Source: Escherichia coli (GTDB lineage Bacteria > Pseudomonadota > Gammaproteobacteria > Enterobacterales > Enterobacteriaceae). From it: 64,000 nt of DNA. Made by a program: the position numbers. Positions 1-24,000 of this stretch are shown piece by piece; position 1 is the stretch's first letter; each line of letters opens with the position of its first letter. The stretch is from assembly GCF_048403405.1 (NCBI RefSeq), contig NZ_CP183129.1. One strand, written 5' to 3'.

Positions 1-3000
1 GTTGTTTCATGCCCACGAGGCGCGCGACCTGGCGGCGTAAGTGCCATGGTACTTGGGTGGAGGCGTGGATAACCAGACGATCGCCGTCCATACGGGTAAA
101 GCAGATATGAGTTTCAGTCGGGCACTGCTGCGCCTGCGTTGAGTTATAGGTTCGCTCAATGATCACATCGGCATCGGCAAAGCCTTTGTCCATATCGCCA
201 ATATGACCATGAATACTGGCGGCGATATTTTTACGGGGGCGAGAACCGATCGGGAAGTTGATGATCATATGCTCGCCGCGCTGGGCTGCATGGCTGTTAT
301 CGTCTTCCAGAGTATCTGGCGCACCAGCAACATACACCACCGGTTCATCGTGCACGACAGGCGCATCTTCCGCCATTGCTTCGTCGATCGACATTACAGG
401 TTTAAGCACTTCATATTCAACGTCGATGAGCTTCAGTGCTTCGAGCGCAATGTCTTCACTTTCTGCGACGACCGCAGCAACGCGATCGCCGACGTGACGC
501 ATTTTCTTGCCGAACATACGGCGGTCAAGCGGTGACGGTTCCGGTGCGCTCTGACCGCCCGGGGTATAGTAGATATCCGGGCAATTCAGGTGAGTAATAA
601 CGTGAACAACGCCCGGTAAGGCTTCAGCTTTGCTGACATCCAGATGAGTAATCAGTGCGTGAGCGTGTGGGCTACGTAACATTTTAATGACGCAGGCATC
701 AGCCGTTACGCGGTCTTCAACATAGCAGGGTTTCGCCTGCACCATTTTCGCGGCATCAGTTTTAGGATAATGCTTACCAATGACTTCAAGGTCATCGCGG
801 AAAGTCGGAGCGATATCAATGGTGGCCTGCGGATTATTTTTACGTGCAACCGCCAGTTCAATGACCTGATAGTATTGTTGCCAGCCTGCATCGCGGCTGA
901 ACAAACCAGAAAGCGCGTCGTCGATCTCTTCGCGGGTCGGTGCGGCAATGCGATCGAGAAGATCGGTGATAATCAGAGCCGCAGCTGGATCGTTATAACC
1001 AGACTGCACCACGCCAACATCAACCATTGCCTGTTGAACCAGACTTAACTCGTTCCATTTGCCCAGAGACTCTGTGGTACGAATATCTGCCTTCTCTAAC
1101 TGTGCGGCGATAAGCAAGGACGCGTTAACGATATTACCGTTACAGATAATTGCGTCAGAACCGGCAAACCCGAATCCATCATCGCTGTTGCGTACAGAGT
1201 GCATTCCCATGTTAAACAACAGCTTTTGCACGTTTTCGCCTGGATTAACGGTTAGCTCCTGAGGCGCGCCATTTAAAGTAAAGTGGATGATCATACGGCT
1301 TCCTCCCCAGCCTGTTGGCAGTCGGCATACAGGTCGGCTACCAGAACTCCCGTGATATAGCGTTTATAGGCCACGCTGCCCCGCAAATCTTCCTGCGGGA
1401 AAATGGCGTTGGCGACAGCCTGTTCAAGTGCATTGCCTTCCAGATTTTGTTTTTCAACATCGTGCAGACGCAGGGCTTTACTGGCGACGCCATCCAGCGC
1501 AATTCGCATACCGTCGTGGTCTGTCATTGCAACGGCTGCCGTCACGACGGTTAAACCTGCCTGAGAACGGCTAATTTTGCGGGTCGCACAGGTGCGATAC
1601 GGATCTTTAATGATAATTTCGGTTAGCAGGCGATCGCATGGGCAGGCCAGGTACTCTTCGATTGACAGTGTTTCGCCATTGCCAAAAACCAGTTCAGCAT
1701 CCAGTGCCAGCAGGACGGGAAGCAGCACAGACTCTTCCTGCCGGGCGGCGATTTCACCACCAATGGTCGACTGATTACGAACATGGCGAGAGTAGACAAA
1801 GCCGAGGGCTTCACGCAGTGCTGCAGGAATAAATCGCGCATCACGCAGTGGCTGCAAGCGAGACATTGCGCCAATCCGCAGTGCACCGTTATCCCAGTCA
1901 ACCCAGTCCAGTTCCAGATCCTGTAAGGAAATGGCAATCTTTTTATCGGTACGGGTTGGTGTAGCGTTGAGTTTGCTGCCCCCGGCGAACCAGACGGCTT
2001 CATCCTTGTAGCGGCGCTTCAGTTCCAGCGCCTGTTCGACAGAGTCGGGCCTGAAAAATTGTTCAATCATCTTCTTTCCTTATTTAACCCTCTTCCCTAC
2101 GGGAAGAGGGTATTTGTCATTTATGCCAGCGCATCCATCCGACGCCACATACTGGCAGCGGCTTTTCTGGCTTGCGCATAAATGGAATCGCAATCGAAGT
2201 TAAACTGACGGTCTTCATAGACCATCACGCCATTGACCATCACGCTATGAACGCTGCCTGAGCCCATACCGAAAGCGATATGCCCGGCGATATTGTCTGC
2301 CAGCAGCGGTGTCGGCGAGTTGTAATCGCAAATGGTTAAATCGGCTTTGTAACCGGCTTCCAGAAGGCCAAATTTCGCGCCAAAGTTGCGGCTCATCAGT
2401 TCGTTGCCGTTAGCCAGTGCTTTGGCAAAACTGTCAGGCCACAGCGGACCACCCGCATCGCGATGTTTAAAGAAGGCAAATTTCATCTCTTCAAACATGT
2501 CCGAACCAATGCCGTCAGTTCCCAACGCCAGATTGCGGATGTCGCTAAGGTGATGGTTGTAGCCGACATGGTTGTTCATGTTTGAACGGGCGTTATGCAC
2601 CAGGAACGCATCGCGCTGATTGAGTAGGGCGATGTCATCTTTCGACAAGTACAGCCCATGAGCGACCAGCGTTTTGCTGTCGATGAGATCGAATTGCGCC
2701 AGTCGTGCCAGCAGGTCTTTGCCGTACCAGTGGTGACTGTAGGAAACGTCATAAAGGTCTTCCGCAGCGTGAATGTGCAAACCACGACCTGTGGCTTTCA
2801 CGGCTTCACGCAGCATCTCCAGACCGGCATCCGGCACGGTAAACGGCGCGTGAGCGCCGATATGTGCTTCCACCAGATACGGTTCGGTTGCTGCTTTCTT
2901 CGCCTCATCAATCTGACGGGCGAAGCGGATGTTTTCTTCTACACCTTCCTGCAACTCTTTGATACCGTTGTTACGGTCAGTAGTTTCAAAACAGGTCATC

Positions 3001-21000: not shown

Positions 21001-24000
21001 TCAACGGCAAATACGACTTGTGGCGCGCCATAACCACGCATCGCACCAGCCGAGGGGAGGTTGGTATAGCAGGTCTTTGAACTGTAAGCGTAGGCACAAC
21101 GAGGATAAAGGTAAGCGACTTTATTCCCCCCTGCAGAAGCGATGGAGTGCCCGTGAGATGCATAAGCGCCGGTGTTAGACAGAACATCCAGACTATAACC
21201 TTTCAATGTTCCGTCGCGGTTCACGCCCATTTGCCCGTCAATAGTAAAAGCGTGGCGGGTACGGGTTGCGAGGAAACACTCTTCACGGCTAAGGGAAACT
21301 TTCACCGGAATGCCGCCAAGCTTGCTGGTCAGGAATGCCGCCATTGGCTCTTCCAGTACATCCTGTTTATTACCAAAACCGCCACCGACAAACGGTTTGA
21401 TGACTCGTACGCATGACCAGGGAATATTCAGCGCCTGACCAACCACACGGCGAACAATGTGCGGGATCTGGGTGCTGGAAACGATGGTAATTCGCGAGTC
21501 ATCCTCCATCCATGCCAGCGATGTCACGCTTTCCATGTGACAATGTTGAATGACCGGCGTCTGATAGTGCCCCTGCACCTGGTAATCGGCGGCATCGATT
21601 GTTTGTTGGACATTACCCGTCGACATCGAGCTTTGTTTTAGTAAATTGCCGCCGTTATGGATTGGTGCAGCGTCATCTGCCAGCGCCGCTTCTGGCGTGG
21701 TGATAACGGGTAATTCTTGCCACTCAATGCTGACCAATTGCGCCGCTTTTTCTGCCGTGATTTCATCACGGGCCACGACGATGGCAACGGCGTCACCATG
21801 ATGACGAACATGGCGAGTTAGCAGTGCGCGATCGGCGGTATCGCGCTTGTTTTCGTCAAGTGTCCAGGCATGCCCAGCTGTAGCGAATGGGATATCAGGT
21901 ACATCTTCCCAGGTAAAAATTGCCAGTACGCCTGGTAAACTTCTGGCTTGTTCATCATTAATACTTACGGCATAACCATGTGCGATAGGGCTACGTACAT
22001 ATTTCGCGTAACACATGCCCGCCATAACATAATCGTCAGTATATCGTGCCCGCCCGGTGACCTTAGCAATGGCATCGACGCGCATGCAAGATTCACCCGT
22101 AGCGGTTGCTTCCCGCGCTTCCATAGAAATCCCCTCGATTTGAACATTTGGTTCTTATGGCAAAGATTTAGTCTAAGCAGGCAAGATTTACGCCAGAAAC
22201 GACGATAAGCGTTAGGGGAGGAAGGAAGTGTGATGACGTTAAAAAAACACAGATATGATACGAAACAGGACTCTGAATAGGGGCAGTGATACGTATCAAT
22301 ATGAGTGGCGATAAAATCAATGTGATAAATCAGGATTATTACGCATCAGGATGGGAAATAGGGTAAAAAAGTCAGGAAATTCGATACCTCTGCAGCGAAT
22401 ATTTTGCTGATGATACTTCCCTTTGCCAAATGAAATTAACCTCTTTCTCTATTACCGCGTTTTTCCAGAAGCAAGAGATTGGGTATCCAGAGGCTGGCTG
22501 CTATGATATGGCGTCTTGTTTTTTAAGCGAGGAAAGATTTTGAGTGCGGGACGCCTGAATAAAAAATCTCTGGGTATCGTGATGTTGTTATCGGTTGGAC
22601 TGCTTTTGGCGGGCTGCTCGGGTAGCAAATCATCCGATACAGGAACGTATTCCGGCTCCGTTTACACCGTGAAACGGGGGGATACGCTATATCGTATTTC
22701 GCGCACCACGGGAACCAGCGTAAAAGAGCTGGCGCGACTGAACGGCATTTCCCCCCCTTACACCATTGAAGTTGGTCAGAAACTAAAACTGGGTGGGGCG
22801 AAAAGTAGCAGTACACGTAAATCAACCGCCAAATCAACGACCAAAACCGCATCGGTTACACCGTCATCAGCAGTACCGAAATCTTCCTGGCCGCCAGTAG
22901 GGCAACGTTGTTGGTTATGGCCAACGACAGGGAAAGTTATCATGCCGTATTCGACAGCTGATGGCGGCAATAAAGGGATTGATATCTCAGCTCCACGGGG
23001 TACACCTATTTACGCCGCGGGTGCAGGAAAGGTGGTGTATGTGGGCAACCAGCTGCGTGGCTACGGTAATCTCATCATGATTAAACACAGTGAAGATTAC
23101 ATTACGGCTTACGCCCATAATGACACGATGCTGGTAAATAATGGGCAAAGCGTGAAGGCTGGGCAAAAAATCGCCACTATGGGGAGCACTGATGCGGCAT
23201 CGGTTCGCCTGCATTTCCAGATTCGTTACCGTGCTACGGCAATTGATCCGCTGCGTTACTTGCCGCCTCAGGGCAGCAAGCCAAAATGCTGATGGCGGAT
23301 TAATCAGCAGTCAGCAGCGCGGCACTTGCTAAGGAGAGCGTAAGGTTTATAATGCCTTACGCATCTCGAAGCGGGCGTAGTTCAATGGTAGAACGAGAGC
23401 TTCCCAAGCTCTATACGAGGGTTCGATTCCCTTCGCCCGCTCCAATTTATCTTCACCTCATCAACCTGCCATTTTTGTTGTATCTGATTTTCTATATTAT
23501 CTTAATTCAATCGCTTCAGACTTTTCGCAATCGCCGTAATACTTCCCCATTTTTTTGTAAATAAAAGCGTTTACGCAATGCAATCCATTTGTAACAACCC
23601 AGGTAAAATACCTTATTTTCAAGTTGTTAAATAAGTGGTTATCTACGCTTTTAACAAACGATTGATGGAATCTTTTATGAAAGGGAAATCTACATTAACT
23701 CTTCTGCTCGCTGGTATATTTTCATGCGGCACATGCCAGGCGACAGGGGCAGAAGTGACGAGTGAATCTGTATTTAACATTCTTAATTCCACGGGGGCAG
23801 CAACTGATAAAAGTTATTTATCGTTAAATCCAGATAAGTATCCTAATTATCGTCTTCTGATTCACTCAGCCAAATTAAAAAATGAAATAAAGAGCCACTA
23901 TACCAAAGACGAAATTCAAGGATTGTTAACATTAACAGAAAATACACGAAAGTTAACGTTGACGGAGAAACCCTGGGGAACATTTATTCTTGCTTCTACT

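Follow-up and report, generated by a model that had tools for sequence, protein, structure and literature searches.

The anaerobic breakdown of uric acid by the ygeV-xdhD gene cluster, which yields pyruvate, ammonia, and ATP, is already known in Escherichia coli, where it was worked out experimentally between 2023 and 2025. The closest described system is the uricolytic cluster of E. coli K-12 (b2866-b2881; Liu et al. 2023, 2025; Li et al. 2025; Kasahara et al. 2023). Here we compare with it the first 24 kb of a 64,000-nucleotide stretch of E. coli DNA (contig NZ_CP183129.1 of assembly GCF_048403405.1), the whole of which is called the window below. We are highly confident that this region is the E. 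coli cluster for anaerobic reductive catabolism of purines and urate, known as the 2,8-dioxopurine pathway, and that it is under a predicted form of control by the activator YgeV, sigma-54, and the cAMP receptor protein (CRP). The enzymatic steps from urate to pyruvate are taken from papers on the near-identical K-12 proteins, and the window itself is known from its sequence.

The route was rebuilt with E. coli enzymes by Li et al. 2025 (PMC12507026). XdhABC oxidizes xanthine to urate, and a delta-xdhA strain leaves xanthine unconsumed. XdhD and YgfM co-purify and carry out the NADH-dependent removal of the 6-oxo group of urate to give 2,8-dioxopurine (isoxanthine), the pyrimidine ring of which is reduced by YgfK with NAD(P)H and then hydrolysed by SsnA, such that the coupled assay yields ureidomethyl-hydantoin. 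HyuA opens the hydantoin ring of this product to form 2,3-diureidopropionate. The two ureido groups are removed by YgeW, which uses phosphate and releases carbamoyl phosphate, and by YgeY, which hydrolyses the last of them to leave 2,3-diaminopropionate. YgeX then converts 2,3-diaminopropionate to pyruvate and NH3. The same route was reached through isotope tracing by Liu et al. 2025 (bioRxiv 10.1101/2025.04.24.650524; Nat Microbiol 2025), who define YgfK as an NADPH:2,8-dioxopurine oxidoreductase and report that E. coli YgeW and YqeA make ATP from 2,3-diureidopropanoate, with YqeA forming ATP from carbamoyl phosphate and ADP. Both studies are summarised in a commentary (Percudani 2025, PMC12990295), which also takes up the choice of ureido group by YgeW, stereochemistry, kinetics, and electron donors.

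An initial annotation of this DNA had suggested that purines or urate are broken down anaerobically via carbamoyl intermediates with a yield of ATP, which is the route that published reconstitution has since established (PMC12507026; 10.1101/2025.04.24.650524). The recent work on anaerobic urate degradation to which it pointed is that of Liu et al. (2022/2023 and 2025) and of Li et al. (2025). Deletions without effect on urate conversion had been named as the result that would speak against this proposal. The published deletions in E. coli MG1655, which removed ygeW, ygeX, ygeY, hyuA, ygfK, or ssnA, instead abolish the conversion of labelled urate to acetate (Liu et al. 2022/2023).

The cluster in the window has the same genes as that of K-12, in the same order and orientation, with proteins that are 97-100% identical and sigma-54 promoter sequences that are identical. 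The two strains differ in the spacer between yqeA and yqeB, which is ~220 bp in K-12 and 40 bp here (9997-10036, holding one hairpin), such that ~150-180 bp are absent from this strain. In addition, xdhA as called by PGAP is 13 codons longer here than in K-12, and the island to the right of glyU differs, with an ETT2 region that is nearly intact here and degenerate in K-12.

The uric-acid clusters of C. sporogenes and C. difficile (XdhAC, which is DOPDH, YgfK or UacX, SsnA, HyuA, YgeW or UacY, YgeY, and YgeX) carry out the same chemistry with homologous enzymes, and their regulator, DioR, belongs to the same type and shares the predicted operator. However, E. coli XdhD has a separate flavin adenine dinucleotide (FAD) subunit, YgfM, and uses NADH, whereas its clostridial counterpart makes no use of NAD(P)H. 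In C. difficile, UacX is found in place of YgfK and the hydrolase UacY in place of YgeW and YqeA, and thus no ATP is made at that step. Reductive pyrimidine degradation (PydA/PreTA, PydB, and PydC) shares the logic of ring reduction followed by opening with a cyclic amidohydrolase and removal of the ureido group. The likeness extends to the proteins, in that the Fe-S domain of DPD (Fer4_20) is also present in YgfK, and HyuA is scored as a dihydropyrimidinase. Unlike the pyrimidine route, the urate cluster acts on a purine, begins with a Mo-dependent dehydroxylation, opens two rings, and conserves one ureido group as ATP. The arginine deiminase pathway likewise couples a phosphorolytic carbamoyltransferase to carbamate kinase to make ATP at the substrate level, but YgeW is a distinct 'knotted' carbamoyltransferase that acts on 2,3-diureidopropionate rather than on citrulline.

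The gene assignments are based on open reading frame (ORF) calls, the RefSeq annotation of a 100%-identical strain, and NCBIfam equivalog scans, all three of which agree. Together with the comparison to K-12, they bear out the gene list of the initial annotation in full, with 16 of 16 named genes found in their places:

1-1294, minus strand: xdhD, first 431 of 956 codons, running off the left edge; Mo/Fe-S subunit of urate reductase (2,8-dioxopurine dehydrogenase); TIGR03313, 908 bits, profile positions 1-427; 99.3% identical to K-12 XdhD
1291-2070, minus strand: ygfM, FAD-binding subunit; TIGR03312, 487 bits
2121-3449, minus strand: ssnA, amidohydrolase opening the reduced pyrimidine ring; TIGR03314, 737 bits
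3452-6550, minus strand: ygfK, NAD(P)H:2,8-dioxopurine oxidoreductase, an Fe-S flavoprotein; TIGR03315, 1780 bits
6872-7450, minus strand: mocA, molybdenum cofactor cytidylyltransferase; TIGR03310, 210 bits
7553-8323, plus strand: yqeC, selenium-cofactor trait marker; TIGR03172, 237 bits
8371-9996, plus strand: yqeB, XdhC-like N-terminal half (residues 19-252, XdhC family) and selenium-trait marker C-terminal half (TIGR03309 at residues 271-526)
10005-10030: terminator-like G+C-rich hairpin between the convergent yqeB and yqeA
10037-10969, minus strand: yqeA (arcC), carbamate kinase, the ATP-forming step; TIGR00746, 386 bits
11017-12402, minus strand: hyuA, hydantoinase; TIGR02033, 673 bits
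12455-13666, minus strand: ygeY, M20 hydrolase; TIGR03526, 722 bits
13724-14920, minus strand: ygeX (dpaL), pyridoxal phosphate-dependent diaminopropionate ammonia-lyase; TIGR03528, 651 bits
14978-16165, minus strand: ygeW, knotted carbamoyltransferase; NF005538, 825 bits
16644-18422, plus strand: ygeV, sigma-54 enhancer-binding protein with GAF, PAS, AAA+, and helix-turn-helix (HTH) domains
18432-18455: terminator-like hairpin between the convergent ygeV and xdhC
18462-18941, minus strand: xdhC, 2Fe-2S subunit of xanthine dehydrogenase; NF007387, 339 bits
18938-19816, minus strand: xdhB, FAD subunit of xanthine dehydrogenase; NF007427, 528 bits
19827-22124, minus strand: xdhA, Mo subunit of xanthine dehydrogenase (xanthine to urate); NF007426, 1482 bits

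The cluster ORFs are intact, the complete genes are full length with NCBIfam equivalog scores far over the curated cut-offs, and the proteins are 97-100% identical to those of K-12 MG1655. Among them, HyuA, YgeW, carbamate kinase, YgeY, and YgeX are all present, above their curated cut-offs, and each 99-100% identical to K-12. The ygfK and ssnA genes are adjacent, 2 nt apart. The extent first assigned to the cluster, 1-22124, does hold these genes, but the functional unit passes both of its ends. On the right, it takes in the xdhA promoter and upstream site (22180-22328), and thus reaches ~22330. On the left, outside the window, the rest of xdhD is followed by xanQ, guaD, ghxQ, ygfS, ygfT, and uacT, which are part of the unit. 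Positions 1-24000 are E. coli chromosome and show 100% identity with several clinical isolates. The co-localisation of these genes is not due to chance, because the 24-kb block is found in 5423 of 5426 complete E. coli genomes and in other Enterobacterales, as well as in Sedimentibacter and Clostridium, the same genes are clustered with a regulator of the YgeV type.

This clustering across phyla also bears on the idea that the block is a juxtaposition of unrelated pathways near xanthine dehydrogenase genes, namely hydantoin or D-amino-acid metabolism through hyuA, diaminopropionate detoxification through ygeX, and an arginine-deiminase-like ygeW-yqeA pair. Such a reading draws on older single-enzyme work that persists in the annotation, where HyuA is a D-phenylhydantoinase and YgeX a diaminopropionate ammonia-lyase, and on the terminator-like hairpins that lie between ygeW and ygeX and between ygeY and hyuA. 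In vitro reconstitution, however, connects all of these enzymes into a single route, the genes form part of one co-regulated iModulon, and sigma-54 promoters and an upstream palindrome are common to the operons. We therefore regard a chance assembly of separate pathways as extremely unlikely.

Another possibility is that urate is degraded mainly by the formate-dependent AegA/YgfT route, or is reduced to xanthine by XdhABC, with the ygeW-xdhD genes in an accessory role. This view goes back to Iwadate & Kato 2019, as cited in other papers, and it is in keeping with the observations that every strain tested in LB medium still removed some urate (PMC12507026) and that single deletions blocked urate consumption in part (Liu et al.). 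Against this, labelled acetate was absent in six of six deletion mutants (Liu et al.), and 2,8-dioxopurine and ureidomethyl-hydantoin accumulate as predicted for the reductive pathway (PMC12507026). Moreover, ygfT belongs to the same regulon and may only feed electrons. An accessory role for the ygeW-xdhD genes thus appears very unlikely, and the reductive 2,8-dioxopurine pathway is retained as the main route.

The initial annotation had counted three Mo-hydroxylase systems or subunits in the cluster, of which XdhABC and XdhD-YgfM stand and YgfK does not. The Pfam domains of YgfK are exclusively Fer4_20 (DPD-type 4Fe-4S), Pyr_redox_2, and a Fer4 4Fe-4S dicluster, and a Mo-binding domain (Ald_Xan_dh_C or MoCoBD) was not found by Pfam. 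Apart from its own family model, the NCBIfam matches of YgfK are to oxidoreductases of the glutamate-synthase-small-subunit or DPD type. YgfK is thus ruled out as a molybdenum hydroxylase by the lack of a Mo-binding domain, and it is instead an Fe-S flavoprotein, which leaves two molybdenum hydroxylases in the cluster, XdhABC and XdhD-YgfM.

The database names of YgfK, 'putative selenate reductase subunit YgfK' in RefSeq and 'Se_sel_red' in TIGR, raise the alternative that YgfK and XdhD-YgfM form a selenate reductase and that the cluster has its role in selenium metabolism and not in purine catabolism. The selenium-trait markers yqeB and yqeC alongside fit such a role. However, selenate is neither needed by YgfK nor stimulates it, and the enzyme is specific for 2,8-dioxopurine (Liu et al. 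2025, 10.1101/2025.04.24.650524). Furthermore, urate is reduced by XdhD-YgfM (PMC12507026). The deletion phenotypes likewise relate to urate, and we give the selenate reductase proposal practically no chance of being correct.

A trait of selenium-dependent molybdenum hydroxylases, for which yqeB and yqeC serve as markers, is said to have been described by Haft and Self in 2008. The presence of yqeB (TIGR03309) and yqeC (TIGR03172) beside Mo hydroxylase genes in the window is the combination that marks this trait, and on the strength of these two genes the E. coli enzymes are predicted to depend on selenium. MocA would supply the cytosine-dinucleotide form of the molybdenum cofactor, and the labile selenium ligand would be installed by YqeB and YqeC, a step for which the selD and yqeB genetics come from clostridia. 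Selenium dependence has been demonstrated for C. sporogenes and C. difficile, and thus for clostridia only, so that the initial annotation went too far in calling the E. coli cluster selenium-dependent. The Mo enzymes of C. sporogenes, DOPDH and XDH, require both selenium and selD (Liu et al. 2025, 10.1101/2025.04.24.650524). In E. coli, selD is located outside the window.

The window was compared with five other enterobacterial loci, from Enterobacter sp. Bisph1, Raoultella, and three contigs of metagenomic or short-read assemblies. A scan of a genome collection with full-length YgeV was dominated by generic AAA+ patterns, with only L003-L009 being full-length relatives, and orthologous loci were recovered by means of a protein search with the N-terminal domain and contig look-ups. 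Generic scans of the whole window gave matches at the level of chance, both for sigma-54 promoters (39 versus 38 expected) and for CRP sites (28 versus 31 expected). Only intergenic matches that have a published counterpart or cross-species conservation were kept:

6622-6638, minus strand: sigma-54 -24/-12 promoter of ygfK-ssnA-ygfM-xdhD, GTGGTGCGATTGTTGCT; site OS31, invariant in six enterobacterial loci
16258-16274, minus strand: sigma-54 promoter of ygeW, CTGGCACACTTATTGTT; site OS30, conserved in five loci
22180-22196, minus strand: sigma-54 promoter of xdhABC, CTGGCGTAAATCTTGCC; site OS29
6702-6717: perfect CRP consensus upstream of ygfK, TGTGAAAGAACTCACA; the only match with 0 mismatches in the 64-kb window
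16318-16333: CRP-like site upstream of ygeW, 1 mismatch; partly conserved in five enterobacterial loci

All three -24/-12 elements (GG-N10-GC) in the window are base-for-base the sigma-54 sites OS29-31 found by chromatin immunoprecipitation sequencing (ChIP-seq) in Bonocora et al. 2015, and the fourth sigma-54 site of the regulon is that of ygfT, beyond the window. Between ygeV and ygeW, a peak of the sigma-54 holoenzyme has likewise been reported by genomic SELEX. Glucose represses the pathway, and Li et al. 2025 (PMC12507026) replaced the native Crp site in the ygeV-ygeW spacer. The perfect consensus sequence upstream of ygfK suggests that CRP binds there, and CRP sites upstream of both ygfK and ygeW would explain the observed glucose repression.

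Upstream of each of the four promoters (ygfK, ygeW, xdhA, and ygfT), ~125-215 bp from the -24 element, is a palindrome of the form TTATCA-N3-TGATAA. The individual sites, which include candidates for the upstream activating sequence (UAS) of YgeV, are as follows:

6807-6821: palindrome upstream of ygfK, TTATCATTATGATAA, reading TTATCATAATGATAA on the ygfK strand; 0 mismatches; candidate YgeV UAS
16446-16460 and 16475-16489: palindrome-like sites upstream of ygeW, in the conserved block 16446-16503; 2 mismatches each; candidate YgeV UAS
22314-22328: palindrome-like site upstream of xdhA, TTATCACATTGATTT on the minus strand; 2 mismatches; candidate YgeV UAS
L002 6053-6067, outside the window: palindrome upstream of ygfT; 2 mismatches; its 15-mer is identical to that at 16475-16489

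In the three spacers of the window, four core matches were observed versus 0.09 expected from composition-matched shuffles, for a motif that was derived post hoc. In alignments of the regions upstream of ygfK and ygeW, no variation is seen in the arms of the palindrome or in the -24/-12 elements, against a mean column identity of 50-65%, and the flanks diverge. For the ygfK palindrome in six enterobacterial loci, the arms are fixed and the spacer is variable. A comparable arrangement occurs in Sedimentibacter hydroxybenzoicus. There, three perfect palindromes come after the gene for a YgeV homologue with 36% identity, and beyond them are a perfect TGGCAC-N5-TTGCT promoter and, next in order, ygeX-ygeW-ygeY...yqeA-ssnA. 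In a Clostridium metagenome-assembled genome, paired palindromes and sigma-54 promoters precede ygeY and a permease-like gene. Across 1.32 Mb of control loci, mostly with unrelated sigma-54 activators, the motif is not enriched, and enrichment is found at YgeV-type loci only.

The same palindrome has been predicted as the UAS of DioR, a regulator of Clostridiales whose function was listed as 'Unknown' (Nie et al. 2019, PMC6615313). DioR is homologous to YgeV (36-39% identity), and its gene lies beside dpaL, ygeW-ygfK-ssnA-ygeY, yqeC-ygfJ-yqeB, and xdhABC, with the predicted regulon given as dpaL-pyrC-argE, ygeW-ygfK-ssnA-ygeY, yqeC-ygfJ-yqeB-xdhC, and xdhABC. The UAS sites in Table S3 of that study include ATTTATCATAATGATAAGG, a C. 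botulinum DioR site whose core is the 15-mer of the E. coli ygfK site. In the clostridial predictions, TTATCA-N3-TGATAA is located 100-300 bp upstream of -24/-12 promoters, and the uricolytic operons of the E. coli window have the palindrome within this range of their sigma-54 promoters. Because it is conserved in enterobacterial loci, Sedimentibacter, and Clostridium and equals the predicted DioR UAS, the palindrome is probably the YgeV operator in E. coli. The operator was thus already predicted for clostridia. The DioR regulon was derived computationally and for Clostridiales only, and its occurrence in E. coli and the equation of YgeV with DioR are our own extension, which we infer with good support. 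Neither the E. coli operator nor the cysteine motif of YgeV described below was found in the papers that could be searched. YgeV would then bind palindromes ~125-215 bp upstream of the sigma-54 promoters of ygfK, ygeW, xdhA, and, outside the window, ygfT.

Alternatively, the palindromes might be the target of a different regulator, such as Fur or an A+T-favouring nucleoid protein, with YgeV binding elsewhere. The palindrome upstream of ygfK contains ATAATGATAA, which presumably is also part of the Fur-box consensus, and the motif is A+T-rich and located in A+T-rich spacers of 37-40% G+C. On the other hand, in both Proteobacteria and Bacillota the motif is found together with an activator of the YgeV/DioR type and a sigma-54 promoter, it is absent from other sigma-54-activator loci, its arms are fixed while its spacer varies, and its number in the three spacers exceeds that in shuffled sequences, with the reservation as to its derivation given above. 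We consider binding by such a different regulator to be unlikely, and YgeV remains the preferred candidate.

Palindrome-like sites also occur within coding regions. A core palindrome inside ygeX (14632-14644) is without a counterpart at up to 2 mismatches in the five other enterobacterial loci and is attributed to chance. Inside yqeC, the palindrome-like TTCTCAATGTGAGAA (8197-8211) lies ~160 bp upstream of yqeB and is found at the same place in two other loci (L085 1461 and L086 3009). No sigma-54 promoter was seen downstream of this site, and it may reflect coding constraint or be an internal site. One short-read assembly contig (Logan), L086, carries at 9762-9929 the trace of a deletion that has joined ygeV, from its residue 137 on, to the final 56 codons of ygeW. 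Because this deletion removes the promoter region shared by ygeW and ygeV, L086 is a degenerate copy of the cluster.

The YgeV protein has the domains of a sigma-54 activator, including a Sigma54_activat AAA+ domain (PF00158, E 2e-70) with a GAFTGA loop at residues 347-352 and an HTH_8 Fis-type HTH. By sequence, its sensor region gave only weak PAS matches to the PDB, and a GAF domain was recognised by fold search. Residues 1-271 have 384 relatives at E <= 1e-10 among the 1.8 billion representative proteins searched. Within the GAF domain is a cysteine motif, C84-x2-C87-x5-C93 (CxxCx5C), that is at least 90% conserved in a 76-sequence alignment that includes clostridial DioR-type regulators. 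The cysteine loop could bind a metal or an Fe-S cluster, act as a thiol switch, or form part of a pocket for urate or 2,8-dioxopurine. The fullest version of the proposal is that YgeV is the orthologue of DioR and directly activates ygfK, ygeW, xdhA, and ygfT from enhancers conserved between Bacillota and Enterobacterales, with the cysteine loop as a possible switch or pocket. We judge the chances that this entire combination is correct to be evenly balanced. Consistent with a role for YgeV, the cluster genes are co-regulated in one YgeV iModulon, and ygfT expression is reduced in a ygeV mutant according to Iwadate & Kato 2019, as cited in the iModulon study.

Several observations weigh against the assignment of the region to urate catabolism under YgeV control. 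Only 45% of xdhD is inside the window, with the remainder seen in the identical strain. The 2025 papers differ on which ureido group is taken by YgeW, with albizziin as the product in one case and 3-amino-2-ureidopropanoate in the other. Urate use by E. coli also varies with the medium, and the block of urate consumption in single deletions is partial (Liu et al.). In three of the five other enterobacterial loci, only the XdhC-like half of yqeB is located between yqeA and ygfK, and mocA, yqeC, and the selenium-marker domain of YqeB were not found at that position (L003 1939-3390, L084 1856-3560, and L087 1750-2980). In these three loci, either the selenium genes are elsewhere in the genome or the pathway operates without the selenium trait. 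With regard to regulation, the palindrome was chosen post hoc from the very sequences in which it was scored, and its copy upstream of ygfK resembles part of a Fur box. Furthermore, the region upstream of ybiY, a member of the YgeV iModulon, has neither the palindrome nor a sigma-54 -24/-12 element in K-12 (L088 7513-7642), and the co-variation of ybiY with this iModulon is probably indirect. Finally, a different role has been proposed for YgeV as IsrR, an indole-responsive regulator that acts on genes in the enterocyte effacement locus (LEE) in the virulence of enterohaemorrhagic E. coli (EHEC).

Additional features were noted in and around the cluster. Strong terminator-like hairpins are located within the ygeW-yqeA gene row, after ygeW (14950-14971) and after ygeY (12418-12437), which suggests attenuation or sub-operons rather than one uniform transcript. 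An Rfam scan of the whole window at gathering thresholds revealed no riboswitch or other RNA element in 1-22124, with tRNA-Gly and OmrA/OmrB found elsewhere only. To the right of the cluster (23371-25600), the tRNA-Gly gene glyU precedes a gene of glycoside hydrolase family 15 (GH15) and a toxin gene of the GhoT/OrtT family. At this place annotated K-12 has ygeQ, pseudogenes, and IS2 instead. From 25878 to ~50800 extends an ETT2 type III secretion island that is nearly intact (eivF, sctC, sctV, sctN ... ygeH, ygeG), with two frameshifted genes, one spaN/eivJ-like and the other yscQ-like, whereas K-12 retains remnants with IS2. Further along (61975-62860), the genes for the small RNAs OmrA and OmrB match Rfam at 86 and 97 bits, and after them comes an IS200C transposase gene (62402-62860) that is inserted before aas.

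Gut bacteria that carry this cluster remove urate, which gives the pathway published relevance to hyperuricaemia and gout, and E. coli Nissle over-expressing the cluster has been reported to reduce serum urate in mice. The native regulation is described as poorly understood in the 2025 papers, and it can be read from the DNA in the form of a candidate YgeV/DioR operator, CRP sites, and sigma-54 promoters. These elements are concrete targets, both for lifting repression of the pathway in probiotics and for identifying its inducer. If the proposed role of the cysteine loop is true, a cysteine switch or ligand pocket in YgeV would couple expression of the pathway to anaerobiosis or to its substrate.

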